A DNA stretch of 43,524 nucleotides from positions 1 through 43,524 of the forward strand of contig CAZLCB010000002.1 in the NCBI GenBank assembly GCA_964558195.1, in the 5' to 3' direction. The notes beneath the pieces are model-generated. The model was given only the letters and a program-made list of their open reading frames with translations, was not told the origin of the DNA and did not search any database. Numbering within the stretch: position 1 is the stretch's first letter; every line of letters starts with the position of its first letter. A program made the position numbers and the translations under genes. Shown here in pieces: positions 3,439 to 43,524 of this stretch. Source of the DNA: an uncultured Gammaproteobacteria bacterium (GTDB lineage Bacteria; Patescibacteriota; Microgenomatia; UBA12405).

Positions 3439-3555
3439 TAATAAGAGAATAATGTTTTTGGGAAATGTTTGCAAGATTTAAACTAGCTGAAGGTTGAAAA
3501 AAAGGCTGTTTTATATTAAAGTAAGACGTTATTAAAAATTAATAAGGAAGAATAT

Positions 3556-7083: not shown

Positions 7084-7413
7084 ATGGATATGGGTACTTT
7101 AGCTGGTATTGGTTTGGTCTTACTCATAATCGTGTTGGCGGTAATATCAGCGTCGGATGAACCATCAAAGAAGAAGGTAAAGGGCAAAGTCTTGGAAAAG
7201 CATTTTGTTCCGTCACACGACGAGACCGTCATCTTAACGTCGATGATATTTGTTGATGGTGTGGCTGTTCCGTTACACACACCATCAAAAGAGCATCGCG
7301 ATGATGCTTGGTACTTGGTTGTCGAAGTTAAGGAGGGCAAGACTGAAAAATGTCTTGTCTCACGAGATGTTTACGACAAGGTTCAAGTTGGAGAATTTAT
7401 TGATCTGAAATAA
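7084..7413 (+). CDS. small membrane-anchored hypothetical protein (GC-rich orphan unit)
   Basis: An AAGGAG SD lies 7 nt before ATG 7084. There is an N-terminal TM helix (LAGIGLVLLIIVLAVI). GC content is clearly higher than in neighbouring genes. The gene has its own promoter and terminator. Confidence 0.6.
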   Translation: MDMGTLAGIGLVLLIIVLAVISASDEPSKKKVKGKVLEKHFVPSHDETVILTSMIFVDGVAVPLHTPSKEHRDDAWYLVVEVKEGKTEKCLVSRDVYDKVQVGEFIDLK

Positions 7414-7701: not shown

Positions 7702-8049
7702 GTGTTTATCTCTGTTCCTGTGAACTGGGTCCATGTTCCGGCGGATGATTGGCAGAGATGTTGGCGAGTGTTTGAAGTTCTTGAACTGAAGATAGAACCG
7801 GTTCGAGTGCTTTGCCCTTGTCAGGTGCCAAACAGCTTTGTCCTTGTGGCGTATGCTAAAGAGCCTGGGGCTCGCCCTCCGTATGAGGAGCACAGATTTA
7901 TCCTGATCAATGACTCACAAGAGCTTGTCAATGCTTTTAAAGTATTGATAGAGATGGATGAACAAGGGTATTCTGACAGGGAAACCTATTTCATGTTGAT
8001 CGAGGAGGCTAAGAATCAGGTGAAGGCGATGGCCAGCCCTTTCAAGTAA
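7702..8049 (+). CDS. hypothetical protein (GC-rich orphan unit)
   Basis: A GGAGG SD lies 8 nt before GTG 7702. The 115-aa ORF is about 50 percent GC by eye. I recognise no family. Confidence 0.55.
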   Translation: MFISVPVNWVHVPADDWQRCWRVFEVLELKIEPVRVLCPCQVPNSFVLVAYAKEPGARPPYEEHRFILINDSQELVNAFKVLIEMDEQGYSDRETYFMLIEEAKNQVKAMASPFK

Positions 8050-8483: not shown

Positions 8484-8696
8484 ATGTCACAAGAAAATAT
8501 AGGTAAATATCCGTTTTTTGAGTTAGCAGCTAAGCATTTATTGCCAGACATGGTAGTTCGGACTAACCCAAAAATTAATTTAGATGAAAAACTAAGTGGT
8601 GATAGTGGAGATAAATTTGAAAATTCAACTTTTGATATGACTAGTCCAGCTAAGGATCTGATTTCTGGCTTAGGTCACAGGGAAGATGATAGATAA
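8484..8696 (+). CDS. hypothetical small protein
   Basis: 70-aa ORF. TATAAT at 8469-8474 sits exactly 9 nt before the ATG, so the transcript looks leaderless. Confidence 0.35.
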   Translation: MSQENIGKYPFFELAAKHLLPDMVVRTNPKINLDEKLSGDSGDKFENSTFDMTSPAKDLISGLGHREDDR

Positions 8697-8858
8697 GAAT
8701 ATTATCTTATAATATTGATTTTTGAGGGTTTTTGAGGTATAATAGGGCTGATTTTGGTAATGGTTAGCTTAATAGCTAAGCTAATGTAGTATATAAAAAA
8801 ACTAAAGTCGGACCTTTAAAAAGCACAAATCGACTGGATAGAGATGGAGGATGGATTT

Positions 8859-9206
8859 ATGGGTTTTGAATTGCAGTTGATTCAGATTGTTGGAGCGACC
8901 GTATATGATTTTCTTCGGAGGTGTTTGATTGACAAGAAGGTTCAAATCACTCGTAAAGATGAAGGGAGAACCTTTTTGATCATGATCTCCCGCCAGATTG
9001 GCGTGATGGTACAAATTCTGGATGATACGGTCAAGGCTAAGTTTGAGCCAATAACGTTGGCAGCTGCCAAGGTTTCAGATATAGATGCTGAAATCGATAG
9101 GGCAGTCTCGGCATTTAACCTTAACACGCAATTCGTGTGCGCCTATACAAAAGAAGAATCAAATTACCGAGTGGTATATGATTTTTCTTGTTTAGGCAGG
9201 AAATGA
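8859..9206 (+). CDS. hypothetical protein (GC-rich orphan unit)
   Basis: A GGAGGA SD lies 7 nt before ATG 8859. Upstream are GGTATAAT and leader hairpins such as TTAGCTTA ATAGC TAAGCTAA. Confidence 0.5.
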   Translation: MGFELQLIQIVGATVYDFLRRCLIDKKVQITRKDEGRTFLIMISRQIGVMVQILDDTVKAKFEPITLAAAKVSDIDAEIDRAVSAFNLNTQFVCAYTKEESNYRVVYDFSCLGRK

Positions 9207-9311
9207 ACGATTTGTCGATTTATTTGCGATAAAGGATGTGATGTTTGCCGGTGGGTGAAATTTGAAAATAAAAGGTAGGTGGCGGAAGCTACTTATTTTT
9301 TACAACAAACT

Positions 9312-10172: not shown

Positions 10173-10180
10173 ATATGAGT

Positions 10181-10260
10181 TGTAAAGTTAAAAGTATAAA
10201 GTTGAAAGTTATAAAGTATAAAGTTGAAAGTTATAAAGTATAAAGTAGAAAGTAAAAATA
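10181..10260 (+). repeat. AAAGT-family heptamer-periodic block including a 22-nt unit repeated about 2.6 times
   Basis: AGTATAAAGTTGAAAGTTATAA occurs at 10193-10214 and 10215-10236, followed by a partial third copy. The block fills the intergenic spacer. Confidence 0.85.
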
Positions 10261-20416: not shown

Positions 20417-20488
20417 TATCCCCAGGGGGAATTGAACCTCCATTTGTCGCTTAGGAGGCGACCGTTCTATCCGTTGAACTATGAGGAC
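20417..20488 (-). tRNA. tRNA-Arg (anticodon CCT)
   Basis: Manual cloverleaf: acceptor GTCCTCA/TGGGGAT (two GU pairs), D arm GTTC/GAAC, anticodon stem GTCGC/GCGAC with loop CTCCTAA, T arm GGAGG TTCAATT CCCCC (one A-C mismatch). No encoded CCA. Confidence 0.8.
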
Positions 20489-20580
20489 ATATTAGTTTGT
20501 CAGCTTGTCAGACTATCAGCTTTTTAGTTAAAAATTTATTTCTGAGAGGCTGAAGAACTGACCTTCTGAATAACTAAGGG

Positions 20581-20994: not shown

Positions 20995-22203
20995 TTATTT
21001 TTTGATGGAGAGGGAGTAAAGGTTTTCAGTAGAAGAGAGGGAGAGGTTGGTAAGAATAATTACTTTGCTGCCGTCAGACCAGGGATAAACACAGTTAGGG
21101 TCAAAATTTGAAGATAAGATGGTTTGTTGGTTGGTGCCATCGTAGTCGATGACTTTTAAGCTTTTATCTTGGACGTAGATAAGATTATTAGTGTTTGGTA
21201 TCCAGAAGATCTGAGAGACATCTTTTTGAGAACCAATAAGGAAGTTAGTGTCATCTTTAATATCATAAACATAATAATTGCCGGATTTAACTTGGCGACT
21301 TTGGGTTTGGGTGCTTTGAGCCGGCGGAGGAGTAATAATATTGTCAGTTATTTGTCCGTCAGCTTGGGCTAAATAAAGAATTTTATCTTCCTTAGTGGAA
21401 TATTGGACGTGCTGGGCTGATATAGTAGAAATTAATGGTTGAATATCTTTGGGAAGCTTGTCAATTTTGTTGGTGATAATTAAAGTTGTTTGGGTTTGCC
21501 AGTCGGTGTAAATCTCTTTGAGGTTTTTGGTGACGTCGGTAAGTTTTTGAGAAGAAATAGGGCTATCAAGGGAAAGGAGATAGTTAATTTTTGTTTTGGG
21601 GTTATTAGCAAGAACTTGTCGAGAGTTAGGTGAAAAGGTGTATTTAAATTCAGTCCAATTGATAATAGCGGAGTTGGTGGCTAACTGGCGAGTATCGCTG
21701 CGAAGAAAGGAAATGGGTAGACCATTGGACTCGATAAGGTAAAGACCGTTGTCTTTGGTGGCTGAAGCGGAAGCAACGGCATAAATAATTTTAGTATTAT
21801 CGATATTGGCTGAAGGATTGATAGCGCCGGTTAAAGTGATGGGTTTAAGATCAGGGACAGAACTAAAAAGTTGAATATCAGCTAAATAAACAGTTTCTGG
21901 TTTGACGGTAATATCTTTTTGCCAAGGATTGAAACCATTTTTACTGATTTTGAGATTATAGACACCAGGGGAGAGATTAAAAGTATCATCAGTGGCGGTA
22001 ATGAGTTTGTCGTTGATGTAAACAGAGGCACCTTTGGGATAAGAAACAGTAGAGATGATTCCGGTAGGGTCGAGGGTAAAGCCGTTTTTGAGGGAGAACC
22101 GGTAACCTCGGGCAAAAATGGAAATGAGATAAGTAAAGCTGATAATAAAAAAACCAACCAGGGCAATGAGAATAAGACTGCGTCGGTTCGAGCTATTTTC
22201 CAT
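20995..22203 (-). CDS. PEGA-domain membrane protein with C-terminal beta-rich (TolB-like) region
   Basis: N-terminal TM helix followed by a PEGA-like segment (YPKGASVYINDKLITATDDTFNLSPGVYNLKISKNGFNPW). Divergent from mreB. Confidence 0.6.
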   Translation of the reverse strand: MENSSNRRSLILIALVGFFIISFTYLISIFARGYRFSLKNGFTLDPTGIISTVSYPKGASVYINDKLITATDDTFNLSPGVYNLKISKNGFNPWQKDITVKPETVYLADIQLFSSVPDLKPITLTGAINPSANIDNTKIIYAVASASATKDNGLYLIESNGLPISFLRSDTRQLATNSAIINWTEFKYTFSPNSRQVLANNPKTKINYLLSLDSPISSQKLTDVTKNLKEIYTDWQTQTTLIITNKIDKLPKDIQPLISTISAQHVQYSTKEDKILYLAQADGQITDNIITPPPAQSTQTQSRQVKSGNYYVYDIKDDTNFLIGSQKDVSQIFWIPNTNNLIYVQDKSLKVIDYDGTNQQTILSSNFDPNCVYPWSDGSKVIILTNLSLSSTENLYSLSIKK

Positions 22204-25042: not shown

Positions 25043-25528
25043 ATGAAGGATCTGTTGGTTTCGAAGGTTTCAGTGGAAACGGTACTAGGAACTACGAGGT
25101 TGGTTATGTGGGCACCGACGGCAAGTGGTTGTTATGAGCCTGGTTTTGATTGCATTCAATGGACAGATGTTCAGCTTCAGAGAGAAACCTATTTGCAGAG
25201 GATTCCGCATACCACCTATGACTGTCACGAATCAATTGATCCAACTTGGCCGACCAAGGAAGTTGTTGCCGATGTTTTTGGCAGGCCGGGATGGAAAGGT
25301 GAACCGATTTATCGTCGGCTGGAGAAGCTGATGGAATCAGGAACTGATTTGTCTTTGTTGCTTCCCGGAAGCCGGAGGCATATGCCGATCTATTTTGCCA
25401 AAGGCAACAGATTGTTGGCTGTTTGGGATGGATCGACTGGAGCGATCTTGTTGGTTGAAGAACTGCCTGAAAGTTGCAAAAACTTTTATCAGGCAGCGTT
25501 CGCCAATACTCGGAGACAGGTTGCTTAA
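25043..25528 (+). CDS. hypothetical protein (GC-rich orphan unit)
   Basis: ATG 25043 follows AAGGGGA. About 48 percent GC by eye. Upstream promoter-like CCTATAAT, a 10-bp leader stem (24961-24970 with 25001-25010) and a downstream 10-bp stem (25544-25553 with 25579-25588). Confidence 0.5.
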   Translation: MKDLLVSKVSVETVLGTTRLVMWAPTASGCYEPGFDCIQWTDVQLQRETYLQRIPHTTYDCHESIDPTWPTKEVVADVFGRPGWKGEPIYRRLEKLMESGTDLSLLLPGSRRHMPIYFAKGNRLLAVWDGSTGAILLVEELPESCKNFYQAAFANTRRQVA

Positions 25529-25661: not shown

Positions 25662-26585
25662 TTAGAACTGGCCGAGGAATTTTATTTCCGGTTCGAGAGC
25701 GATGCCTAATTTTTCTTGAGCTTGGGTTTGAATGAATTTAACTAATTTAAAATAATCGGCAGCAGTGGCATGACCTTTATTGATAATAAAGTTAGCATGA
25801 AGGGGACTGATTTGAGCATCACCAATAGAATAACCTTTGAGATTTAATTTTTGATCGATAATCATGCCAGATGAGTCTTGGTTTGGGTTATTTTTGAAAA
25901 CTGAACCCAGGGAATTCATTGATTGAACAGAAGATTTTCTTTGTAAAATACTTTGAAATTTTTGTTTGGCAGTAGCAGTATCACCAGAATTTAATTGCAA
26001 AATGGCAGAAATTATAAAATTATTAATTTTTTCAACAGAAATGACGAATTGGGAAAATAAATGTTTATCGTCACCGTGAATATTGCCGGCAATAGCACCG
26101 CCGACAGTGGAGGGAATGTAGGCAAATTCTTCCAGACCAACCAAGTTATTATCTAAAGTAAAATTAATGAGTTGGGGAAGCTGGACACCAGAAGCAACTT
26201 TTACTTGATTGTTGGGTAAAATTTCTATTTCGTTGGAATCATTTTTGATAACAATGCCGCGAAGGCCAGAATCGGAAATTAAAACATTGGAGCCATTTCC
26301 TATTATGGAAATTGAAAATTTGCCTCGTAACGAATTTTTCGAGGTGCTCGCACCATCGTAAAATCCACTCAGCGGCTTGCGCTCCTCAAAAATTGTTACT
26401 TCGGTGTTTTCATTTTTTAAAAAATTTAAAATTTTTTTAAATTCTTCTGATGATTTGGTGTGAATAAAAATATCGGCAGGACCGCCGATTTTGACGGTGG
26501 TGTAAGGGGCAAGGGTGTGATTTTGGTAGATTTCGGAGTTGGGGAAATTAGATTTAAGGTTAGAGTAAAGTTTATCGATATTCAT
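25662..26585 (-). CDS. murB: UDP-N-acetylenolpyruvoylglucosamine reductase
   Basis: Motifs HTLAPYTTVKIGGPAD, IIGNGSNVLISDSGLRG, IPSTVGGAI, and the C-terminal GDAQISPLHANFIIN. It contains an extra in-frame segment at 26333-26394. Confidence 0.88.
   Translation of the reverse strand: MNIDKLYSNLKSNFPNSEIYQNHTLAPYTTVKIGGPADIFIHTKSSEEFKKILNFLKNENTEVTIFEERKPLSGFYDGASTSKNSLRGKFSISIIGNGSNVLISDSGLRGIVIKNDSNEIEILPNNQVKVASGVQLPQLINFTLDNNLVGLEEFAYIPSTVGGAIAGNIHGDDKHLFSQFVISVEKINNFIISAILQLNSGDTATAKQKFQSILQRKSSVQSMNSLGSVFKNNPNQDSSGMIIDQKLNLKGYSIGDAQISPLHANFIINKGHATAADYFKLVKFIQTQAQEKLGIALEPEIKFLGQF
26333..26394 (+). repeat. about 62-nt hairpin element (family M), copy inside murB
   Basis: Terminal inverted repeat AATTTTTCGAGG/CCTCAAAAATT. 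The core ACCATCGTAAAATCCACTCAG matches 12472-12535. Confidence 0.75.
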
Positions 26586-26607: not shown

Positions 26608-26631
26608 AGGGGCGTATTGCCATACGCCCCT
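26608..26631. repeat. REP-like palindrome copy AGGGGCGTAT TGCC ATACGCCCCT
   Basis: 10-bp perfect stem matching the 6624-6651 palindrome. It lies 23 nt upstream of the murB start. Confidence 0.85.
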
Positions 26632-26794
26632 ACAAAAAGGGGAAATTGAACCTAAATTATATCTTATATAATAAATAATTTTAGATAGTAAAAAAATATG
26701 GGTTGTGAATGTGGAAAAGTGGAGAAAAATTGAAACGACCTATAATTTTTTGAGGAAGTTTTTGGTATAATTAGGGATATTTTTTAAAGAAAAA

Positions 26795-28709: not shown

Positions 28710-29282
28710 ATGATTTCGAGTTTGACGGGAAAAATAAATAGGATTTGGGGAAATAATTGTGAAATAGAAGTTGGAGGAGTAGGATATCTGCTTTTTGTAG
28801 GAAAGAATTTTTTGAAAAAACATAATGTGGGTGAAGAGTTGACAGTGGCAACATATATGGCGGTGTCGGAAAATGATATTAATTTGTTTGGATTTGAAAA
28901 TTGGGACGAAGTAGATTTATTTAAAATGTTAATTTCAGTATCAGGAGTGGGACCAAAAACAGCTGCAGGAATTTTGGGAGAGACTGAAAGTTTAGCCATT
29001 ATTAAGGCAATTGGAAATGCTGATGTGAGGTTTTTTGAGAAGATTAAAGGAATAGGTAAGAAAACTGCCCAAAGAATTATTATTGATTTGAAATCAAAGA
29101 TTGGGGGTTTAGGGGAGTTGGATTTAACAAAAGATGAAAAAATGGTTGATGATGATTTGGTAATGAGCTTAAAACAATTGGGATTTGATAAAAAAGAAAT
29201 TGATAAAGTGACGAATAAATTACCAAAAGAATTGGAAACAACGGAAGAGAAATTAAGTTGGTGTTTACAAAATTTAAGTTAA
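28710..29282 (+). CDS. ruvA: Holliday junction branch migration complex subunit RuvA
   Basis: N-terminal OB-like segment (I..L.G.I...) and HhH motifs (VSGVGPKTAAGIL, IKGIGKKTAQRIIIDLK). Confidence 0.9.
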   Translation: MISSLTGKINRIWGNNCEIEVGGVGYLLFVGKNFLKKHNVGEELTVATYMAVSENDINLFGFENWDEVDLFKMLISVSGVGPKTAAGILGETESLAIIKAIGNADVRFFEKIKGIGKKTAQRIIIDLKSKIGGLGELDLTKDEKMVDDDLVMSLKQLGFDKKEIDKVTNKLPKELETTEEKLSWCLQNLS

Positions 29283-29308
29283 AAGTAGAAAGTATAAAGT
29301 TGAAAGTT

Positions 29309-30271
29309 ATGAAAGATAAAAAAATTTTAGATCAGAAAGCGGAAGTGGAGGAGAAAATTGTTGAGAAAAAATTGCGACCACAGAAGTTGAATGAATTTAT
29401 TGGTCAGGAAAAATTGAAAGAACAATTGGATATTTTTTTGAAGGCGGCTAAAGCTCGAGAGGAGACTTTGGATCATATTTTGTTTTATGGTCCACCAGGT
29501 CTAGGAAAGACAACTTTGGCCTGTTTAATGGCTCGAGAAATGAATTCTAATATCAAGATGACCTCTGGACCAGCGTTGACACGAGCAGGGGATTTAGCCT
29601 CTATTTTGACTGGTTTAAAGAAGGGAGATTTTTTATTTATCGACGAAATTCATCGATTAAACAAATTAGTAGAAGAGATGCTTTATTCGGCAATGGAAGA
29701 TTTTGCTTTGGATATTGTGTTAGGTAAGGGACCGGCAGCAAAAACAGTGAGACTTAATTTGCAAAAATTTACACTGGTAGGAGCAACAACTAGAATTGGT
29801 TTAATTTCCGGACCAATGAGAGATAGATTTGGTTATGTCCAACAATTGGATTTTTATGAAGATACGGATTTAAAGGAAATTGTGGAACGAACCAGTGAAG
29901 TGTTGGGAGTAAAAATAGAACCAGAGGCGGCCGAATCAATTTCTAAAAGATCGCGGGGAACGCCAAGAATTGCTAATAGATTATTACGACGAGTGAGGGA
30001 TTATGCCCAGGTAAAAAATGATGGATTGATAACTTTGAAAGAAGTGAATGATTCTTTAAAAATGCTTGGGGTGGATAATTTAGGATTGTCTGATGCAGAT
30101 AGACGGTATTTAGATGTGGTCAAAAGACAGTATGGTGGTGGTCCAGTGGGGGTAGAGAATATCGCCGCCAGCTTATCGGAAGACGTGGGAACGATTACTG
30201 AAGTTTATGAACCGTTTTTAATGAAGAAAGGATTAATTAAAAGGACACCGAAAGGGAGGGTTAGTTTGTGA
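29309..30271 (+). CDS. ruvB: Holliday junction branch migration DNA helicase RuvB
   Basis: LRPQKLNEFIGQE, Walker A GPPGLGKTTLA, Walker B LFIDEIHRL, GATTR, RGTPRIANRLLRR. ATG 29309 is preferred over the upstream TTG, which reads through a heptamer block. Confidence 0.95.
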   Translation: MKDKKILDQKAEVEEKIVEKKLRPQKLNEFIGQEKLKEQLDIFLKAAKAREETLDHILFYGPPGLGKTTLACLMAREMNSNIKMTSGPALTRAGDLASILTGLKKGDFLFIDEIHRLNKLVEEMLYSAMEDFALDIVLGKGPAAKTVRLNLQKFTLVGATTRIGLISGPMRDRFGYVQQLDFYEDTDLKEIVERTSEVLGVKIEPEAAESISKRSRGTPRIANRLLRRVRDYAQVKNDGLITLKEVNDSLKMLGVDNLGLSDADRRYLDVVKRQYGGGPVGVENIAASLSEDVGTITEVYEPFLMKKGLIKRTPKGRVSL

Positions 30272-30745: not shown

Positions 30746-31000
30746 TTATTCGGCTTGGATTCCCAATAGCCAGAGAACAGCCTCTTTGCGGTAGCGGCGA
30801 TCACCACGAGCATTGATACGGATAGCCGGAAGTTTACCCCGTTTACCCCAGCGTTTGATGGTGAGTTTGCTGACACGAAGAAGATCGGCGACTTCGGCGA
30901 CGGTCAAAAGATCAGGCAAGTTGTCGATAGAGACGCCATTGATTTTTTTGGGCGATGATTGTTTCACAAGTTTGTCTTGTGATTCAGTTTGAATATCCAT
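30746..31000 (-). CDS. excisionase-family/MerR-like helix-turn-helix DNA-binding protein (GC-rich orphan unit)
   Basis: LLTVAEVADLLRVSKLTIKRWGKRGKLPAIRINARGDRRYRKEAV matches the excisionase-type HTH pattern. GAGGAG SD 7 nt upstream. Leader hairpin TTAACTG TATT CAGTTAA (31031-31048). Confidence 0.7.
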   Translation of the reverse strand: MDIQTESQDKLVKQSSPKKINGVSIDNLPDLLTVAEVADLLRVSKLTIKRWGKRGKLPAIRINARGDRRYRKEAVLWLLGIQAE

Positions 31001-33839: not shown

Positions 33840-34355
33840 ATGATAGAAAATATTAATTATGAACAAGAAATCCAATCTGTTGATCAAACGGTTGCAAAAC
33901 AGGGAAGTAAATATTGGGATGAAATTGGTATTAGATGTAGATGGGAACTTCATTCGCTACCAGAATATATAGATGGAGATGAACTTTTGAGTATGGGTGT
34001 GATGGAGAAGATGATGGCTATTTCAAATGTGGAATGTCTGGGTGATTTTACTGCCAGTTTAGTCGAGGGGTACAGTACTGAGAGTGGAGGTAAAGAACAT
34101 TATCGGTTTTCTGTAATATTTGGAGATGGGAGCGATAATAAAAAATTTAGTTATTTGAGAGAATATACAGCAACAACTGAACATGGAGAAATAACTGGTA
34201 TGGTTCAATCTACTGTTGGGTTGTCTGTTGAATCAGAAGATAAACACTTTGATATATCTAAAAGGATCGCTGATGTTTATGTTGAGGATATGGAGGCAAT
34301 GTATACAGATTGGAAAAATTGCTGGAGCGAAGGTCATTTTGTGATAGCAAGGTAA
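33840..34355 (+). CDS. hypothetical protein
   Basis: 171-aa ORF. TATAAT at 33825-33830 is exactly 9 nt before the ATG. Confidence 0.45.
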   Translation: MIENINYEQEIQSVDQTVAKQGSKYWDEIGIRCRWELHSLPEYIDGDELLSMGVMEKMMAISNVECLGDFTASLVEGYSTESGGKEHYRFSVIFGDGSDNKKFSYLREYTATTEHGEITGMVQSTVGLSVESEDKHFDISKRIADVYVEDMEAMYTDWKNCWSEGHFVIAR

Positions 34356-34419: not shown

Positions 34420-34809
34420 TTATTTTAATTCAACTTGAGCGCCGGCGGCTTCTAATTTTGCTTTAGCATCATTAGCAGCATCTTTTTTCATAGTACCGAG
34501 AGAAGCTGGGGTAGCATCGACCATATCTTTAGCTTCTTTCAAACCTAATTCTGGTTTGAATTCACGGACAACTTTGATAACAGCGATTTTGTTGGTACCA
34601 CCAGAAGTGATGACAACATCAAATTCACTCTTTTCTTCAGCAGCAGGAGCAGCAGCACCAGCAGCAGGAGCAGCAGCGGCAGCAGGAGCGACAGCGACAG
34701 CTTTGACATCGAATTTTTCTTCGATACCTTTAACGAGTTCAGACAATTCTAAAACTGAAAGTTCAGAAATAGAATCTAATATTTTTTGCAATTTTGCAGA
34801 AAGTTCCAT
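34420..34809 (-). CDS. rplL: 50S ribosomal protein L7/L12
   Basis: N-terminal dimerisation helix, Ala/Pro hinge ([17 protein letters not shown]), and the C-terminal domain [20 protein letters not shown]. Confidence 0.97.
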
Positions 34810-34910
34810 ATTTTTGTTTTATAATTAATAATTTTAATTTTCGAATTTTCAAAATCCAGTTTTCAATGAATGAATTAATTATTTAATTTTTTAATTAAAA
34901 CATTAATAAA

Positions 34911-34943
34911 TTGATTGGTATTTGAAAATTGTAAATTGGTAAT
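34911..34943 (+). repeat. heptamer-periodic block (GATTGGT ATTTGAA AATTGTA AATTGGT)
   Basis: Read directly in the rplJ-rplL spacer. Confidence 0.55.
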
Positions 34944-35462
34944 TTAATTTTGCTCTTGTTTGTCAGCAACGGCTTTAAGAGCTAAAGCGAGTTGGGTTTG
35001 GTTATATTTCAAACCATAAGCAAGACGTTGTAAAGGATTGACTAATCCACCTAAAAGTTGAGCCATGAGGGCTGATTTGGATGGAAGAGAAATGAATTGC
35101 TTAAGTTCATCAAATCCGAGAAGCTTTTTGTCGTAGACACCGTATTTGAAGGTGATGAAATCATGATCTTTGTTGACTTTATCAATCTCTTTTAAAGGAT
35201 TGACTTCATCTTCGTTACAGAAGGTGATGGCGGTTGGGCCAGTCAAAGTTTCAGGGAGAGTAATACCGATGTTGGCAAAAGCACGAGCAATAAGGCTGTT
35301 TTTGACAACTTCAATTTTACCGCCCGCAGCACGAACGTTATCGCGAAGAGCAGAAACGTCAGCAGCGTTGAGACCCTGATACTGAATCAAAGCACAAGAT
35401 TTAGCACTTTCAAGCTTGCTGGTGATATCAGCGACTTGATCTATTTTGGCTTGATTTGGCAT
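34944..35462 (-). CDS. rplJ: 50S ribosomal protein L10
   Basis: 172 aa. Position immediately upstream of rplL and L10-like sequence (ALIQYQGLNAADVSALR). Confidence 0.92.
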   Translation of the reverse strand: MPNQAKIDQVADITSKLESAKSCALIQYQGLNAADVSALRDNVRAAGGKIEVVKNSLIARAFANIGITLPETLTGPTAITFCNEDEVNPLKEIDKVNKDHDFITFKYGVYDKKLLGFDELKQFISLPSKSALMAQLLGGLVNPLQRLAYGLKYNQTQLALALKAVADKQEQN

Positions 35463-35600
35463 TTATCTTTTAAATTAGTAATTTACCGAAATTGAGGCTT
35501 TTAAAAAGAAAAAGGCCTCGGTAACCGAGGCGCAGATAAAACAAAATTAGATTGTTTTAACCTCGGTGGGACTTATTGGTATGCCTACTATCTTCGGTTG
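35463..35600 (-). promoter_or_regulatory. structured rplJ 5' leader (possible L10 autoregulatory leader)
   Basis: Stems such as GCCTCGG TAA CCGAGGC (about 35513-35529) and a repeated CCGAGG/CCTCGG. Assignment to the L10-leader class rests only on position. Confidence 0.35.
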
Positions 35601-35663
35601 ATGGGGAATTATAACAAAAATATATTAGCTTGTCAGTATGTCAGTTTTTCAGCTAATCAGACT

Positions 35664-35730
35664 AAAAAAAAAGGAACTATGGGTGTTGCGAAATGTGGAT
35701 CTTACGATCAATCACAAAATACAACACCCA
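35664..35730 (-). terminator. long-loop hairpin plus T run downstream of 35799-36032
   Basis: TGGGTGTTG (35680-35688) pairs with CAACACCCA (35722-35730). On the minus strand this is followed by T9 (A run at 35664-35672). Confidence 0.55.
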
Positions 35731-35798
35731 CAGAGTGGAAAGATTTATGGCTTATGGTCAAATACGCTCTTTCCGGGCGTTGGGTTCAGGTTTTGTGG

Positions 35799-36032
35799 TT
35801 AGTAACAGATGAAGAGTTGCAGTTCGAATCTTTTTGCGAGCTCTTCGACCTCTAGCCGGTGGCTGTCGAGATAGGCAATGCCGCCCTCACCGTCGATTTC
35901 TGCGTGAACACCTTTCGTCTTGAGGGTACCGATAAGATCGGATATTACCCCCAAAGAGGCTTTGCGTTTCAGCGCTTCTTCTTCTGTCTTGGGTGGACGC
36001 GTGGTGGCAGGGATGACAATAGATCGTTCCAT
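35799..36032 (-). CDS. hypothetical small protein (GC-rich orphan unit)
   Basis: GGAGGAG SD 9 nt upstream. Leader hairpin at 36065-36081. About 50 percent GC. The leader is homologous to that of 36832-37116. Confidence 0.55.
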   Translation of the reverse strand: MERSIVIPATTRPPKTEEEALKRKASLGVISDLIGTLKTKGVHAEIDGEGGIAYLDSHRLEVEELAKRFELQLFICY

Positions 36033-36206
36033 CTGACTGTTCTCCTCCGCGACTTATATTCCTACACCGAAAGTTTCGGTGCTAGGTACGAGGGCTTAAA
36101 GTGCGAAAAACCTGATTTATATTTTTAGAAAAAATATGCAAATTATATATTCCCAAAAATATGGGATATTTTAATATTTTGATAGTGAATGGTCAAGAGG
36201 GGAGAA

Positions 36207-36259
36207 ATAAAAACCCGCTACTAGCAATTTTGTCTCGCGACAATATTGTTTTGGCGGGT
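36207..36259 (-). terminator. long hairpin with GCGA tetraloop plus T run downstream of 36273-36665
   Basis: On the minus strand: ACCCGC...CAATATTGTC GCGA GACAAAATTG...GCGGGT followed by TTTTTAT. Confidence 0.6.
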
Positions 36260-36272
36260 AAAGCCGAGATAT

Positions 36273-36665
36273 TCAGTTGACCTGAAAATCTTTGGTGTTG
36301 ATGAACGAGAAAAGGATACCGGTTTTGGTTCTGAATGGAAGGTTGATGATAAAGTCATTGAAGATTTCTAACTGAATCTTTCTGGTAAATTCGAAAATAT
36401 TAGTGATTTCATCGAGTTCACCGTTGGATAGTTGGTCGAGTACATCCCAGAATAATTTGGCGTCCTTGGGGGCTCCGGTAGCGGCGGTTCTTTCGTACTT
36501 GGCAATTGTTGTTTTGAGCAACTGATTGTCGGGAGGATTAACCAAAAATTTGGTTAATGTTAAGTCGATAGCCTTGTCGTCGGTCTCTATATAACCATCG
36601 AATACCAGAATCAGATTAGTCTTCTTACGATCGTTGGTGATCATGAGAGAAGATATGTACTTCAT
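36273..36665 (-). CDS. hypothetical protein (orphan unit)
   Basis: 130-aa ORF with a GAAGGA SD 7 nt upstream. It has its own CCTATAAT promoter-like box and its own terminator. Confidence 0.55.
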   Translation of the reverse strand: MKYISSLMITNDRKKTNLILVFDGYIETDDKAIDLTLTKFLVNPPDNQLLKTTIAKYERTAATGAPKDAKLFWDVLDQLSNGELDEITNIFEFTRKIQLEIFNDFIINLPFRTKTGILFSFINTKDFQVN

Positions 36666-36760
36666 GGGTGGATCCTTCTTTCTTTTTAAAATGTGCTTGC
36701 TGTTAAGCCTGGTATTTTAACTCTTTACAGAAGATTTTTCAAATTATAGGATATTTTTGA

Positions 36761-36828
36761 CAAAAAAGAGGCCCGCAATAAACAAAATCCCAATGAAGGG
36801 AAAATGCCTATTGCGGGCGCATGGGGTT
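36761..36828 (-). terminator. long-loop hairpin plus T run downstream of 36832-37116
   Basis: GCCCGCAATA (36771-36780) pairs with TATTGCGGGC (36819-36828). On the minus strand this is followed by CTCTTTTTTG. Confidence 0.55.
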
Positions 36829-36831
36829 TGT

Positions 36832-37116
36832 CTAAACGGGTGCAGTGAACAAGGTTACGGGGGTGATCGGCCGATCAGACTTACGGGTGTAAAACAGGTG
36901 ATACCCGTAAGTGGTGATAGCTTGACTGATATTCTCACGTTCATCTTCCGGGAACGTGATGGTGTCTGTTCCTTGGCTGATGCGTATGTCGCTGTTGGGA
37001 TGCCTAGTTTTGAAATCGGTGACGAAATTCAAGAGATCGTCTCCGATGACCTTGTCGTTGAGTGCCTGTAATGTTGAGACACAGGGATGTCGGGTGAGCA
37101 GTGCTGTTTTAGACAT
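36832..37116 (-). CDS. hypothetical small protein (GC-rich orphan unit)
   Basis: AGGAGGT SD 10 nt upstream and leader hairpin at 37143-37160. Chosen over the antisense ORFs 36757-37071 and 36956-37180 because of these signals. Confidence 0.5.
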   Translation of the reverse strand: MSKTALLTRHPCVSTLQALNDKVIGDDLLNFVTDFKTRHPNSDIRISQGTDTITFPEDERENISQAITTYGYHLFYTRKSDRPITPVTLFTAPV

Positions 37117-37302
37117 ACGGCTTCCAACCTCCTTTTATTACCACACCGAGGTATCGGTGTTGGCTTCTATATTTAAATAAACCCAAAATCTGAATGTGCG
37201 AAAAAACTTTATTTTTATAAATTGCTTTAATCTATATTTAAAGTTTTGTATGAAGTGAAGTTTAGTTTAAATAAAGGGGAAAGTCAAGATTATAGGACAA
37301 AA

Positions 37303-37340: not shown

Positions 37341-37358
37341 TTATAAAATAAGATAGTG

Positions 37359-38435
37359 ATGAAGATTTTAAAATTTATCGGAATATTTATTTTATTTTTG
37401 GGGATAGGTGTGGGGTTGGGAAAATTTTTGAATAAAAAAACCGGTTGGTTGTCACCATTGGGAACAAAAATTGTAAATCGAGAAAAACCAAAAGAGAAAA
37501 ATACTGGTTACTTGGCTAAATATAATTTTGAAAATTTAAAAAAAATAGAACCTCAAACATCAGAAATTAAGATTGTAGAAGAAAATAAGGTTTTGGAAGA
37601 GGCGAGGAAAAATTTGATTAAGGCTTATGATAAAGAGGGGATTAAAAAAGAAAATAATTTTACTAGCTATATAATTACTTTTGAAAGTAATGGAAAAAAA
37701 ATAAGCGGAATGATGAATGTGCCCGCCGACAGCTCCGCAGTCTTGGCGGGTAAACCGGCAATCATTATGATTCGGGGTTATGCCGAATCGACGGGTTATT
37801 TTGTAGGGTCTGGAAGTTGGAAAGCAGCTGATGAATTGGCGAGGAATGGTTTTGTAACTATAAGTTTGGATTTTTTGGGGTATGGATTGTCTGATGGTGA
37901 ATCGAAAGATATTTTGGAAGCTAGGTTTGAAAAACCAATAAGTGTGTTGGATTTGATTGCGGCAGTGAAAAAAATAGATTATGTGGATGGGACAAAAATT
38001 GGAATTTGGTCGCATAGCAATGGAGGGCAAATTGCTATTTCGGTCTTGGAAATAACGGGAGAAAATTATCCGACAGTGCTGTGGGCGCCAATGACTAATC
38101 CATTTCCTCAAAGTATTTTAGAGACGATGGATGATAGTGAGGGTGGAAAAATTGTGAAACAAAAAATTGCTGATTTTGAAGAAGATTATGATAGCAAACT
38201 TTATTCAATCGATAATTTTTATGAATGGATTAAAACACCAATTTTGATTCATCAAGGAACGGCTGATGTGTGGTGTAAAGTGGAATGGCAAGAGAATTTA
38301 AAAGATAAATTAACCAAATTAGGGAAAGAGGTGGAGTTGGATGTAAGGCAGGGAAATGATCATAATTTAAAACAATCGTGGGATGAAGTAATAAAAATGG
38401 ATGTGGAGTTTTTTAGAGAAAAGTTTGGAATGTAA
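37359..38435 (+). CDS. alpha/beta hydrolase (prolyl oligopeptidase/dienelactone hydrolase-like), membrane anchored
   Basis: N-terminal TM helix. Nucleophile elbow GIWSHSNGG and later D and H candidates (GTADVW, GNDHNL). Confidence 0.7.
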   Translation: MKILKFIGIFILFLGIGVGLGKFLNKKTGWLSPLGTKIVNREKPKEKNTGYLAKYNFENLKKIEPQTSEIKIVEENKVLEEARKNLIKAYDKEGIKKENNFTSYIITFESNGKKISGMMNVPADSSAVLAGKPAIIMIRGYAESTGYFVGSGSWKAADELARNGFVTISLDFLGYGLSDGESKDILEARFEKPISVLDLIAAVKKIDYVDGTKIGIWSHSNGGQIAISVLEITGENYPTVLWAPMTNPFPQSILETMDDSEGGKIVKQKIADFEEDYDSKLYSIDNFYEWIKTPILIHQGTADVWCKVEWQENLKDKLTKLGKEVELDVRQGNDHNLKQSWDEVIKMDVEFFREKFGM

Positions 38436-38528
38436 ACCCTTCCTAAATCCTTCCCTTGACAGGGCAGGACTTAATAAATTTTTATTTTCCCTTGCCCTGT
38501 CAAGGGAAAGGGGTAGGGGTTAGGGTTT
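38434..38528. repeat. 95-nt imperfect inverted repeat with AAACCCT/AGGGTTT termini
   Basis: Arms are AAACCCTTCCTAAATCCTTCCCTTGACAGGGCAGG and CCCTTGCCCTGTCAAGGGAAAGGGGTAGGGGTTAGGGTTT around an AT-rich loop. It begins inside the hydrolase stop codon. Confidence 0.8.
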
Positions 38529-38619
38529 AAAGAATTTATTATTGAGAAAAAGAGTTGACCTTTTAGAGAGAAATATCCTGATTTATTGAGGCAAAATGTT
38601 TGTTACAATAGGTTTAGAT

Positions 38620-40430: not shown

Positions 40431-41351
40431 ATGAAAAAGATTAAGGTTTTACTCTTAATGGGTGGTGGTGGAAGCGAACACGAAGTGTCTTTGTCTTCGG
40501 GCGAACAAGTATTGAAAAATTTTGATAAAGAAAAATATGAAGTAATTCCGATGGTGATGGAGGCTCAAAATTTGGATTTGGCAAAAGTAAAAGAAATTGC
40601 ACCGGATTTAGTCTTTATTGCCCTTCATGGCGGAGTGGGTGAGGATGGAACAATTCAAAAAATATTTGAGGATGAAGGAATTAAATTTATCGGCTGTGGA
40701 TCGGAAGCGTCACAAATTGGGATGGATAAAATTAAATTTTTGGAATTAGTGAAAAAAAATGGAATACCGGTACCTAAGGGGTTAAATATAACCAAAGGTG
40801 AATTGGTTGATTTGGATGTGGTAAAAGAATTGGGAGATAAGTGGGTGGTTAAGCCGGCTGGTCAAGGATCAAGTGTAGGGGTAACTATAATTGATAATTT
40901 AGATAAATTAGATGAAGCTTTGGAAGAATCTTTTAAATATGAAGAGAGAGCGATAATTGAAGAATTTTTACCAGGAATGGAAGTGTCGTGTGGAATTGTA
41001 GGAAATGAAGATCCACTAGCTTTGCCGGTAATTGAAATTTGTCCTAAAAATAATTTTTTTGATTATGAGGCAAAGTATACAGCAGGGAAGTGTGAAGAAA
41101 TTGTGCCAGCTAGACTAAGTGAAGAAACGACGAAAAAAATTCAAGAGTATGCATTGAAAGTTTTTGAATTAGTGGGAGCTAGAGGTTTTATTAGGGTCGA
41201 TTTTGTGGTGAAAGATGAAAATCCGATAATTTTGGAAATGAATACAATTCCAGGATTAACACCAAATTCGTTGTTACCTAAAGAAGCAAAAGCGGCAGGA
41301 ATAGAATATGCCCAATTGTTGGATAAAATGATTGAGTTGGCGCTGGAGTAA
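40431..41351 (+). CDS. ddl: D-alanine--D-alanine ligase
   Basis: KVLLLMGGGGSEHEVSLSSG, HGGVGEDGTIQ, ATP-grasp core (KPAGQGSSVGV) and C-terminal EMNTIPGLT. Confidence 0.93.
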   Translation: MKKIKVLLLMGGGGSEHEVSLSSGEQVLKNFDKEKYEVIPMVMEAQNLDLAKVKEIAPDLVFIALHGGVGEDGTIQKIFEDEGIKFIGCGSEASQIGMDKIKFLELVKKNGIPVPKGLNITKGELVDLDVVKELGDKWVVKPAGQGSSVGVTIIDNLDKLDEALEESFKYEERAIIEEFLPGMEVSCGIVGNEDPLALPVIEICPKNNFFDYEAKYTAGKCEEIVPARLSEETTKKIQEYALKVFELVGARGFIRVDFVVKDENPIILEMNTIPGLTPNSLLPKEAKAAGIEYAQLLDKMIELALE

Positions 41352-41442
41352 AAAGTTTTTCAGCTTGTCAGATTATCAGCTATTCAGTAAAACAACCAAA
41401 AACCCCTCCTTTCGGAGGGATTAAAGTTTAAAAAAGGAATCG

Positions 41443-41472: not shown

Positions 41473-42225
41473 TTACTTAACCTCAACTTTGACACAGGGA
41501 CCCATGGTAGCACAGAGAGCCAATTTTTTGATTTTGTTGGACTTGACTACTTTGATAAGTTCTTCGATGTTAGCGGCTAATTCATCGACTGGTTGAGAAA
41601 TTTTACCGACTACCATATGAACAATAGGAGCTTTTTTCTCGGTTTTGACCATAGTTTTGGCTACTGACAAACGTTTAACGGCAGTTTCTGGATCATCGGT
41701 TAGCGTTCCGTTTTTGGGATTTGGCATTAAACCTTTTGGACCTAAAACACGAGCGAAAGGTAACAATTTTGGCATGGTAGCTGGAGTAGCGATAACGATG
41801 TCAAAATTAACTTGACCATTTTTGATTTCAGCCAAAATAGTGTCGTTGAGAATAACGATTTTTTTACTGGCGGTTTCTAAATGAGGGAAAGTGATTTCGC
41901 CGACATTACCAATATCATAAGTAGTGACGTGAGCTTCGATTTTTCCTTCAAATTTTGAAAAAGAAGTGTCTTTAACTAAAGAAATGGCTTCTTTTAAGGA
42001 ATAATATTTGTTAACATCGACTTTTTTCTTCGAGGCTTGATATTTTTTGCCACGAACTTTAGCGATTTTAACTTTGTGGATTTCAGCAGTTTCTTCAGTT
42101 TCAGTAGAAGTTTCTTCGACTACGGTCTCTTCAGTTACGGCCTTTTGTTCAAGCTCTTGGCTTTGAACTTCCACACTTTCTTGTTTAGCTTTTTTAGCTT
42201 TATTTTCTTGTGAGGTTTTGCTCAT
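41473..42225 (-). CDS. rplA: 50S ribosomal protein L1 with acidic N-terminal extension
   Basis: L1 body motifs (GKKYQ, DIVIATP, LGPKGLMPNPK.GT). About 55 extra Glu/Thr/Lys-rich residues at the N-terminus. Confidence 0.9.
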   Translation of the reverse strand: MSKTSQENKAKKAKQESVEVQSQELEQKAVTEETVVEETSTETEETAEIHKVKIAKVRGKKYQASKKKVDVNKYYSLKEAISLVKDTSFSKFEGKIEAHVTTYDIGNVGEITFPHLETASKKIVILNDTILAEIKNGQVNFDIVIATPATMPKLLPFARVLGPKGLMPNPKNGTLTDDPETAVKRLSVAKTMVKTEKKAPIVHMVVGKISQPVDELAANIEELIKVVKSNKIKKLALCATMGPCVKVEVK

Positions 42226-42227
42226 AA

Positions 42228-42265
42228 TTTAGTGCGCTAGAGTGTTAGTGCTCTGGTGCTTTAGT
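42228..42265 (+). repeat. heptamer-periodic block (TAGTGCG CTAGAGT GTTAGTG CTCTGGT GCTTTAG)
   Basis: Read directly. It fills the rplK-rplA spacer. Confidence 0.6.
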
Positions 42266-42278
42266 AAAATAATAATTA

Positions 42279-42704
42279 TTATTGGATGATTTCAACACCC
42301 ATAGATTTAGCGGTGCCAATGACTGAGCGTTTGGCAGCTTCAAGATCTTTAGTATTTAAATCCGGCATTTTAGCTTGGGCGATTTGTTCAACCTGAGCCA
42401 TAGTTAACTTGCCAACTTTTTCTTTGCCGGCAGTACCAGTACCCTTAGAAATACCAGTCATTTTTTTGATCATGTCAGAAACCGGAGGTTTTTTGAGAAT
42501 GAATTCAAAAGAACGATCTTCATAAATAGTGACGACAGCCGGAATAACTGAGCCTCGTTGATCTTTGGTTTTTTCATTAAATTCATTACAGAAATCCATG
42601 ATTTTAATACCATGAGGACCAAGAGCGGTACCAACCGGAGGAGCTGGGTTAGCAGAACCTGCCTGAATAGCGATTTTGACGATTGCTTTAATTTTTTTAG
42701 CCAT
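42279..42704 (-). CDS. rplK: 50S ribosomal protein L11
   Basis: Motifs KIAIQAGSANPAPPVGTALGPHGI and MDFCNEFN. 141 aa. Confidence 0.97.
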   Translation of the reverse strand: MAKKIKAIVKIAIQAGSANPAPPVGTALGPHGIKIMDFCNEFNEKTKDQRGSVIPAVVTIYEDRSFEFILKKPPVSDMIKKMTGISKGTGTAGKEKVGKLTMAQVEQIAQAKMPDLNTKDLEAAKRSVIGTAKSMGVEIIQ

Positions 42705-42706
42705 AA

Positions 42707-42734
42707 ATTAGTTGAAAGTATAAAGTTATAAAGT
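42707..42734 (+). repeat. AAAGT-family heptamer block
   Basis: TTAGTTGAAAGTATAAAGTTATAAAGTT fills the nusG-rplK spacer. Confidence 0.75.
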
Positions 42735-43331
42735 TTAAAGTTCCTTGGTGACTTGTAAGAAATCGAGTTCGACTGGAGTTTCGCGTTCGAAAAAGGAAAC
42801 AAGAACTCTGATTTTACCTTTTTCTTGGTCAATACTATCAATAGTACCAATGAAGTCAGCAAATGGACCACTGGTGATTTTGACAATATCACTAACAGAA
42901 AAGGGAGTTTCATATTTGGGCTTTTCTTCTTCAGTGTGGTTGAGAATTTTGTCAACTTCACTTTGAGGAATAGCTTGAGGTTTGTTTTCGACACCAATGA
43001 AACCGGTGACACCTTGGGTAGTACGAACCGTAATCCAAGAATCATCACTGAGAGACATTTGAACTAAAACATAGCCAGGAAAAGTTTTTTCTTGAGATTT
43101 AACTTTTTGACCACGTCGAATAACCATTTTGCTTTGAATAGGGACGATAGCTTGAAAAATTTGATCTTCGAGACCCATGGTTTTAATACGGGTTTTGAGA
43201 GCTTCTATAACTTTGTATTCGTGACCAGAATAGGTGTTGATGACGTACCAGGCAGCATCGAAACTGGGTTCACGAGAAGAGAGTTTAAAAAGAAACTCTT
43301 TTTGTGTAGTTTTTGTAGATGTTTTTGGCAT
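42735..43331 (-). CDS. nusG: transcription termination/antitermination protein NusG
   Basis: NGN domain (WYVINTYSGHE, FPGYVLVQM) and KOW motif (DIVKITSGPFADFIGTI). Confidence 0.95.
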   Translation of the reverse strand: MPKTSTKTTQKEFLFKLSSREPSFDAAWYVINTYSGHEYKVIEALKTRIKTMGLEDQIFQAIVPIQSKMVIRRGQKVKSQEKTFPGYVLVQMSLSDDSWITVRTTQGVTGFIGVENKPQAIPQSEVDKILNHTEEEKPKYETPFSVSDIVKITSGPFADFIGTIDSIDQEKGKIRVLVSFFERETPVELDFLQVTKEL

Positions 43332-43333
43332 AA

Positions 43334-43524
43334 TTATTTTTTGGTTCCGGCGGTAGAAGCGACTGTCGGAAGGGGATTAATTGTTGGTTCAACTGATTGA
43401 ATCTGTTCAGTTGAAACTGGAGCTTGATTTTTTAAATTACCAAGTAAGCCAATTGAATTGGTAAAAAGATAATCAAAACCACCTAAAATAAGGGAAATGA
43501 TAATCGAGATAGATATTACCACAA
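43334..43524 (-). CDS. secE: preprotein translocase subunit SecE (5' end outside the window) with extended C-terminal tail
   Basis: Position immediately upstream of nusG and a single TM helix (ISISIIISLILGGFDYLF). Truncated by the window edge. Confidence 0.6.
   Translation of the reverse strand, partial: VVISISIIISLILGGFDYLFTNSIGLLGNLKNQAPVSTEQIQSVEPTINPLPTVASTAGTKK

Follow-up and report, generated by a model that had tools for sequence, protein, structure and literature searches.

A putative strain-variable islet of small genes between a hydrolase gene and rplJ in a Shapirobacteria-like bacterium

The analysis concerns three small open reading frames (ORFs) that lie between an alpha/beta-hydrolase gene and rplJ, the gene of ribosomal protein L10, in a stretch of 43,524 nucleotides (nt) of contig CAZLCB010000002.1 (assembly GCA_964558195.1, forward strand). 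This whole stretch is called the window, and its GC content is 36.4%. An earlier note, made from the sequence alone, had placed three ORFs on the minus strand here, and they are indeed found as units A (35799-36032), B (36273-36665) and C (36832-37116). On one side they adjoin rplJ (34944-35462, minus strand) and rplL (34420-34809, minus strand). On the other side lies the hydrolase gene (37356-38435, plus strand), and beyond it a gene of 198 amino acids (aa; p198), murF and ddl, then rplA, rplK, nusG and secE. In a search with the L10 protein the close relatives proved to be metagenome-assembled genomes that carry the label Candidatus Shapirobacteria or Patescibacteria, and for this reason the host appears to be a Shapirobacteria-like bacterium of the candidate phyla radiation (CPR). 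The locus was compared with about 30 related loci (designated by L-numbers) from genomes and metagenomes, whose hydrolase, p198, rplJ and rplL proteins share 60-99% identity with those of the window.

All features of the three units are on the minus strand, i.e. unit C is the first one when reading from the hydrolase gene towards rplJ. The predicted promoter module of unit C (37259-37297) consists of TCCTATAAT, a C, TTGACT, 17 nt and TAAACT, the promoter-like site itself being at 37287-37259, and it is located in a 20%-GC region shared divergently with the hydrolase gene. The 5' untranslated region (UTR; 37117-37206) contains a box GTTTTTTCGCACATTCAG (37189-37206) that is common to slot 1 of L001 and L003, a hairpin CACCGATACCTCGGTG (37144-37159; z = -3.1) and a Shine-Dalgarno (SD) sequence, AAGGAGG (37128-37134). 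The ORF has 94 aa and a GC content at third codon positions (GC3) of 0.58. It is followed by the predicted terminator T1 (36761-36818), a long hairpin GCCCGCAAUAGGCA...UUAUUGCGGGC with CUCUUUUUUG after it (-36.6 kcal/mol, z = -7.2).

In unit B the element TCCTATAAT is followed directly by TTGAAA, 17 nt and TAAAAT (module 36714-36751, promoter-like site 36742-36714), and alignment shows this module to be conserved in L018, L002 and L003. The window contains exactly three copies of the composite of TCCTATAAT and TTGAMW separated by 0-3 nt, and these precede B, C and a further unit, G (expected number 0.01). The ORF of unit B has 130 aa and a GC3 of 0.53, and its predicted terminator T2 (36205-36259) is an imperfect hairpin (36213-36259) with UUUUUAUUU (U5AUUU; -17.9 kcal/mol, z = -2.3). 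The promoter-like site of unit A (36168-36196; TTGACC, 17 nt, TAAAAT) matches the consensus at 10 of 12 positions and is conserved in L028, where it stands directly after terminator T1. The 5' UTR of unit A (36033-36109) carries the box GTTTTTCGCACTTTAAG (36093-36109), the hairpin CACCGAAACTTTCGGTG (36065-36081) and the SD sequence GGAGGAG (36042-36048). This hairpin is kept in L006 and L028, with changes confined to the loop. The ORF (77 aa, GC3 0.54) is followed by a predicted terminator (35664-35733) in which a long imperfect hairpin (35677-35733) precedes UUCCUUUUUUUUU. The 146-nt downstream region with the hairpin folds at -36.5 kcal/mol (z = -4.3; none of 200 shuffled sequences folds as well), and the T9 run ends at 35664, the left boundary given in the earlier note.

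The claim that each of the three units has its own promoter-like box and a long hairpin terminator with a T run is thus borne out at the level of consensus and fold predictions, and the predicted monocistronic layout fits autonomous, individually expressed small genes. The claim of a leader hairpin and a strong SD sequence holds for A and C but not for B, which has no significant leader hairpin and a weak GAAGGA motif. The spacing between SD and ATG is long in A and C (11 nt). The leader design of A and C, i.e. a perfect hairpin of 6-10 bp, an A-rich stretch and AGGAGG, recurs in at least 10 units of the relatives, with stems that vary from unit to unit (CACCGA, GGCCA, ATCGGC, TGCCG, ATCAACC and others). 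Since the geometry is the same and the stem sequence is not, we infer that the hairpin has an RNA-level role (mRNA stabilisation or ribosome access) and does not act as a common operator. A short motif common to the leaders, ACTTTAAA, was rejected as it showed no enrichment. The TTTTTCGCAC box was likewise rejected as a regulon signal: outside the A and C units it is confined to orthologous slots, which is better explained by shared ancestry.

The boundary towards rplJ is marked by a candidate L10 leader (the rplJ 5' UTR; Rfam RF00557) at 35499-35615 on the minus strand. Its score of 42.5 bits (E = 5e-5) compares with a gathering score of 44, and the match covers the full model at the correct position and strand. 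The promoter-like site of rplJ (35608-35636, minus strand; CTGACA, 17 nt, TATAAT, extended TG) has 11 of 12 consensus matches. The last 160 nt or so before rplJ, i.e. the promoter -10 box and the L10 leader, are kept in all relatives and are the sole stretch conserved throughout; homology with the relatives restarts about 10 nt upstream of the -10 box.

The length of the hydrolase-rplJ spacer ranges from 310 nt (L041) and about 370 nt (L035) up to 2.6 kb (L002). Of the relatives with flanking proteins of 85-99% identity, most lack A, most lack B and most lack C; where the flanks are nearly identical, relatives have other small genes in the spacer or no such gene at all. In other words, the units are accessory and vary between close relatives, which is what a comparison of synteny had been proposed to decide. 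Homologs of A were found only in L006, L028/L042 and L054/L055, and homologs of B only in L002, L003/L021 and L018. L001, in which L10 is 99% identical, has none of the three units and carries three other SD-led small ORFs and a methyltransferase-like gene instead. Clustering of the spacer ORFs gave more than 15 unrelated small-gene families. The spacer is thus a hotspot of insertion and replacement, i.e. a strain-variable genomic islet. In a co-occurring strain (L016, JGI 3300028241) the islet is identical to that of the window, so this strain is uninformative there. We also note that L016 differs from the window in three tight patches (35400-35599, 37600-37799 and 38400-38599), each with 43-73 mismatches per 200 nt. 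The L10 leader falls within one of them, and local recombination or assembly chimeras could be the cause. In the more distant relatives L007 (gap positions 1048-1583) and L037 (157-734), sequence inspection assigned a RelE/ParE-like toxin (...HPSLRIHKLTGELKDYWSISI) and a ribbon-helix-helix (RHH)-like antitoxin to the spacer.

The slot beside the hydrolase gene illustrates how the content changes. Gap positions 19-186, with the promoter and the box, and 528-592, with T1, are 80-85% identical to L028, L018, L002 and L003 (85% for T1, though the ORFs upstream of it differ). Positions 187-527 are unrelated to the same relatives (z around 0 compared with shuffled sequences), and the swapped 335 nt comprise the leader hairpin, the SD sequence and the ORF of unit C. 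In the relatives the slot holds two tiny, very basic ORFs of about 44 aa (VEIVLAELIK...KNGRR) and 47-54 aa (MSKKK...PTRRND...), found at L018:3140-3640, L002:7520-8040 and L003:4740-5290 and in L019 and L028, with the same promoter and terminator as unit C. The first tiny ORF shows variation of the synonymous type and ends in a stop codon overlapping the AAGGAGG of the second one. A similar swap is seen at unit F (slot 8822-9230), where the ORF is replaced in L045 by an unrelated one of 112 aa and the leader (98.6% identical) and terminator (77% identical) are kept. Hyper-divergence of the swapped ORFs in place was considered and rejected, as the C and F slots retain no DNA or protein similarity beyond that of shuffled sequences.

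Whole units come and go as well. The indel that distinguishes the window, with unit B, from L028, without it, runs exactly from the 3' end of the T1 stem to that of the T2 stem; the junctions are ...TTATTGCGGGCC|TCTTTTTTG... and ...AGTAGCGGGT|TTTTATTTCTCCCC... in the window and ...TTATTGCGGGCC|GGTTTTATTTCTCCCC... in L028. This is just one example of a junction at hairpins, hence too little to argue for a dedicated mechanism. Strains with 98.6% identity in the flanks lack the segment 6201-7521, which holds an IS200-like gene and unit D. It was also observed that unit D is replaced by a membrane ORF of 92 aa in the near-identical strains L045, L046 and L048, and that D and E carry copies of one another's promoter and leader modules, with 73% identity. 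In the aligned loci the breakpoints lie in shared regulatory modules, so that a promoter/terminator shell can persist and the inner ORF differs.

A and B are real, fast-evolving protein-coding genes under purifying selection, because the ratio of nonsynonymous to synonymous divergence (dN/dS) is 0.22 for A (compared to the ortholog in L006) and 0.13-0.28 for B, and because the ORF length is conserved down to 70% (A) and 50% (B) identity. The dN/dS values of the flanking genes are 0.04-0.13, i.e. A and B evolve 2-4 times faster than the flanks, and their synonymous divergence (dS) is of the same order as that of the flanks. Among 5.8 billion proteins the family of A consists of four clusters (77-79 aa) and that of B of seven clusters at 90% identity, all of 130-131 aa, with a C-terminal half rich in invariant residues. 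A profile of B, compared with 1.8 billion representatives, gave just two remote full-length relatives (134-135 aa); two further matches are repeat proteins and were judged spurious. The orthologs of A always stand between the hydrolase gene and rplJ, a 70%-identical homolog of A occupies the same spacer, and a 50%-identical homolog of B is at the same locus. Both families are thus tiny and lineage-restricted, and wherever their context is available they are bound to this locus. B is not related to either of the other two units.

The coding status of unit C is less straightforward, and we consider it probable that C is a protein-coding gene. Its ORF starts 11 nt after the perfect AAGGAGG and stops about 13 nt before the conserved terminator T1, in the same position as the tiny ORFs of the relatives with their synonymous-type variation. 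The SD-led ORF in slot 3 of L002 shows a weak, full-length and collinear similarity to C (BLASTP E = 0.005), and hhalign matched the A family to C plus this ORF (L002_u3) at P = 51% and E = 1.5e-4. The leaders of A and C also align and have the GTTTTTCGCAC-TT-AG box and the CACCGA...TCGGTG hairpin in common. On the basis of the aligned leaders and the hhalign match, A and C are probably very diverged tandem paralogs. This paralogy would be questioned by the lack of any BLASTP match between A and C, by profile E-values of 0.1-0.2 in a database of 245 sequences and by the hhalign probability itself, which is just 51%.

It is unlikely that a structured non-coding RNA or a spurious ORF accounts for unit C, and possibly also for the GC-rich first slot of the relatives, and here the evidence is divided. 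C was found only in contigs identical to the window (the copies in L015-L017 are all identical), and no homolog was detected among the 5.8 billion proteins; C itself is missing from a collection of 15 billion proteins. Three frames of 84-104 codons are open at C, so the length of its ORF is not significant (p around 0.07). Gene callers and the NCBI record annotate an antisense ORF over C (36757-37071, plus strand; 86/104 aa), which is probably a strand mis-call in a GC-rich patch. The single-sequence AlphaFold2 model of C has an alpha/beta core (predicted TM-score 0.50) with a poor mean confidence (pLDDT 55), and a Foldseek comparison of it with the PDB gave nothing below E = 0.17. An RNA or a chance ORF would leave unexplained that the frame is bounded by a perfect SD sequence and a conserved terminator, and that it resembles, albeit weakly, the L002 ORF and the A family over the full length. 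Moreover, C has no Rfam match and its ORF region folds at a z of only -1.9. For the units in general a non-coding RNA was rejected: Rfam scans at gathering and at permissive thresholds gave only two tRNAs and the L10 leader, and the coding regions are not unusually structured.

The composition of the units differs from that of their surroundings, as the earlier note had estimated by eye. The GC3 of A, B and C compares with a mean of 0.30 (standard deviation 0.04) in 40 other ORFs of the window (z = +5.4 to +6.6), and their fit to the synonymous codon usage of the core genes is poor (z = -5.0 to -6.5). The estimated overall GC content of 42-52% does not apply to B, for which it is only 0.40. 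The note had listed five further units of the same build, D (7084-7413), E (7702-8049), F (8859-9206), G (25043-25528) and H (30746-31000), whose GC3 is also raised (z = +3.0 to +5.2). The similarity in build holds in part. Strong hairpins are found downstream of D, E, F and G, but G has no T run and no SD-like motif (AAAGGGG was seen by eye only; the pattern scan finds none). G and a neighbouring gene of 137 aa are absent from L009 and L010. H does not belong to the set and should be taken out of it: a terminator hairpin is lacking, and the product is an HTH_17 protein that is syntenic in eight loci and 74-100% conserved, with a C-terminal half that is 100% identical, i.e. H is a conserved core gene. 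With B unrelated to A and C, and H a core protein, the units do not form one family.

The translation signals separate the units from the other genes in a similar manner. SD-like motifs precede seven of the eight units and only 6 of the 40 other ORFs, which confirms that the surrounding genes mostly lack one. A TATAAT-like hexamer ending 4-12 nt before the start codon is present in 17 of the 40 non-unit ORFs, in none of the eight units and at 6% of random positions; examples of this leaderless type are 20995-22203 and 25662-26585 on the minus strand and 40431-41351, 8484-8696 and 33840-34355 on the plus strand. From the position of these -10-like boxes it seems that core genes standing first in an operon mostly give leaderless mRNAs. 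The units would then be a separate class with long leaders and SD-dependent initiation. We found no directly relevant CPR literature on SD use, leaderless genes or hypervariable small genes.

The GC3 of every ortholog of A and B is 0.47-0.56, and third-position changes polarised with an outgroup are balanced (about 28 from GC to AT and about 22 from AT to GC). Because of this balance the GC3 of about 0.5 looks stationary, i.e. it would be a maintained state and not that of a decaying import. Selection on mRNA properties and a recombination-associated GC bias are candidate causes. AT-rich genes (the methyltransferase-like gene and toxin-antitoxin pairs) occupy the same hotspot in the relatives, hence recombination-driven GC bias alone cannot account for it.

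Taken together, we think it likely that the locus is a strain-variable accessory islet of small genes native to the lineage, which has grown in the divergent hydrolase-rplJ spacer. The spacer would once have been short (about 0.3 kb) and would then have been enlarged by three monocistronic units co-oriented with rplJ, each with a sigma-70-type promoter, a 5' UTR of 40-130 nt (in A and C with a short GC hairpin followed by an A-rich stretch), an SD sequence, a small ORF and a long hairpin as intrinsic terminator. Turnover would need no dedicated recombinase: ordinary recombination, homologous or illegitimate, may take place from strain to strain and wherever promoter or terminator modules resemble each other, with selection for intact expression signals acting as a filter. 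The 5' hairpin, the strong SD sequence and the strong terminator may together give stable, efficiently translated and insulated transcripts, which would be of consequence where the core genes mostly lack leaders. High GC3 and SD sequences would then be maintained traits of this class of genes and not traces of import. A and B are presumably old residents and not recent imports, since their homologs are at the same spot, their dS is like that of the flanks and their third-position changes are balanced. As to function, we can offer only a tentative and speculative suggestion: the rapid evolution and the hotspot shared with RelE/RHH pairs hint at cytoplasmic accessory factors that might act in strain-level conflict or in host/phage interaction.

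Several observations weigh against this explanation, in addition to the presence of AT-rich genes in the hotspot and to the points raised on unit C. The patchy distribution of A and B requires many losses or transfer between strains, and the counts of polarised substitutions are small. Promoters and transcription starts as well as terminators are predicted here from consensus matches or folding. Finally, the AlphaFold2 model of unit B, made from an alignment of seven sequences, is poor (pLDDT 52).

The earlier note had taken the foreign composition as a sign of horizontal acquisition, i.e. the units would be recent foreign DNA (phage morons, plasmid genes or genes from a GC-richer donor) with the GC3 and the SD sequences of the donor. 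This view agrees with the strongly atypical composition and codon usage, with the presence/absence polymorphism between close relatives, with a promoter and terminator layout that fits the published definition of morons (PMC3594210) and with the IS200-like Y1 transposase gene that adjoins unit D. It is nevertheless rather improbable. No relatives of A, B and C were found by tblastn in 50,697 phage genomes, IMG/VR scans with A, B, C, E and G gave no match, and sequence searches of Pfam, PHROGs, PADLOC, NCBIfam and PDB returned nothing for units A-G. The families of A and B, as described above, occur only in this lineage and only at this locus, their dS is about that of the flanks and there is no decay towards AT. 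None of the nearby genes is of phage type, and H shows the same foreign-looking traits although it is a core gene. In short, the composition does not bear out a horizontal acquisition, and the suggested origin from phages or mobile cassettes found no support in the phage, IMG/VR, PHROGs and integron-core searches. A link to plasmid-like elements did not emerge either.

The units might also be orphan toxin, antitoxin or immunity genes, or components of anti-phage defence. The proteins are small, fast-evolving and strain-variable, and a RelE/ParE-like and RHH pair is found in the same hotspot, though only in L007 and L037, but we regard this as quite improbable because PADLOC, Pfam, NCBIfam and the PDB sequences gave no match. 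With a terminator of its own, each unit is predicted to be monocistronic, and the units are not two-gene operons as expected of type II toxin-antitoxin systems, and sequence inspection revealed no membrane or secretion signals in A, B and C.

A further possibility, very unlikely in our opinion, is that in this CPR lineage a shared, GC-richer pool of cassettes supplies unrelated small ORFs to fixed expression slots (a promoter and transcription-start box, then a hairpin terminator) and that the loading targets the regulatory hairpins, in an integron-like manner without IntI or attC. If this were true, the SD-led, GC3-rich cassettes would constitute an accessory proteome that is translated separately, the rest of the genome being leaderless. 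The idea of integron-like or hairpin-targeted cassettes for site-specific recombination, with the long hairpins as recombination sites, is extremely unlikely. It fits the long imperfect hairpin after each ORF, the co-oriented array, the ORF-precise swaps with a conserved hairpin and the indel junction of B exactly at the 3' ends of two hairpin stems, but that is a single example. Core pairs of attC type (R''/R', RYYYAAC...GTTRRRY) are at chance level in the window (8 compared to 8.9 +/- 4.6 in shuffled sequences) with none at or near any unit, and neither the ORFs of the window nor the genes called on overlapping contigs include an integrase or tyrosine recombinase. Moreover, the units have promoter-like sites of their own and T runs after the hairpins as in intrinsic terminators, and the families stay at one locus.

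Returning to the preferred reading, i.e. an islet of lineage-native genes, it is instructive to compare the locus with known systems. Phage morons are single small genes with their own promoter and factor-independent terminator and an atypical GC content, inserted between collinear conserved neighbours (Cumby et al. 2012, PMC3594210). Like the morons of lambdoid prophages, the units have their own predicted promoter and terminator, a deviant GC content and a presence/absence pattern between conserved neighbours. Unlike them, they are flanked by cellular core genes (hydrolase, p198, murF, ddl, rplJL, rplKA), have no viral homologs in the above searches and appear to be stationary in composition, with families fixed to one locus. 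With integron cassettes and CALIN arrays they share co-oriented small ORFs with imperfect hairpins, a strain-variable content and one junction at the hairpin ends. A CALIN is a cluster of attC sites lacking an integrase, so IntI is not required for this comparison; the units however lack attC cores as well as IntI, have promoters of their own, whereas the cassettes are generally promoterless and expressed from Pc, and carry T-run hairpins that look like terminators.

Flexible genomic islets, or hypervariable regions, are known from population genomics to occupy fixed positions between core genes. The present locus resembles them in its fixed position, its conserved bounding genes and its strain-variable content of unrelated accessory genes, including toxin-antitoxin pairs. 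It differs in scale (0.3-2.6 kb, one to three single-gene units), in the shells that are conserved around swapped ORFs, and in that the resident genes form a compositional and translational class apart from the leaderless core. The leaders can be compared to the stabilisers of mRNA known in Gram-positives and phages, i.e. 5' stem-loops with strong SD sequences such as the ompA-type and aprE-type hairpins and the cryIIIA STAB-SD. A short perfect hairpin just 5' of an A-rich stretch and a consensus AGGAGG is seen here too, and the geometry recurs with different stems. Unlike in those systems, the hairpin of A and C is not at the predicted 5' end (the box is 30-50 nt further upstream), B has no hairpin, and the leaders are known here from sequence alone. 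As an analogy, the locus may best be seen as a chromosomal, non-phage counterpart of morons within a flexible islet on a micro scale.

The neighbourhood of the islet shows some peculiarities of its own. The usual secE-nusG-rplK-rplA-rplJ-rplL cluster is split into two parts (41473-43522 and 34420-35462), with about 6 kb (ddl, murF, the 198-aa gene, the hydrolase gene and the islet) between rplA and rplJ. The same split is found in the distant relative L012, and in the outgroups L013 and L043 rplA directly adjoins rplJ. A motif rich in CAGC/GTCAG (...CAGCTTGTCAGA-TATCAGC...) occurs at 20483-20534, 35616-35667 and 41343-41402. The first copy adjoins a tRNA-Arg gene, the second immediately precedes the rplJ promoter and the third is located in the interval from ddl to rplA. 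The motif may serve promoters of translation-apparatus genes as an upstream element.

Elsewhere in the window, the IS200-like Y1 transposase gene beside unit D (6303-6893, plus strand; Pfam Y1_Tnp, 1.2e-7) is possibly RAYT-like. A 27-nt GC-rich palindrome, GGGGCGTATTGC[A/C]ATACGCCCC, is found inside it (6623-6649) and again 20 kb away (26608-26634). Two tandem ORFs of about 500 aa (156-1664 and 1972-3474, both on the minus strand) contain segments with 71-76% identity to each other, match nothing in Pfam and show an unusually high GC content at second codon positions (about 0.5). Short repeats (AAAGTTGAAAGT/ATAAAGT) are present at 10176-10258, 16314-16361, 29274-29320, 42707-42740 and other sites, apparently mostly at gene boundaries or in intergenic regions.

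CPR/Patescibacteria genomes are tiny and their accessory genes are mostly unannotated, and the present locus offers an alignable example of how single small genes may be gained, lost and swapped at a fixed hotspot. It also suggests that an atypical GC content together with a strong SD sequence need not signal recent import; here these traits would mark resident, leader-containing and SD-translated genes as opposed to a largely leaderless core. The practical payoff will be modest until a function is found. If confirmed genome-wide, the split between leaderless and SD-led genes would improve gene calling in CPR genomes (the callers apparently chose the wrong strand for unit C), and it would point to a distinct expression regime for strain-specific small proteins.

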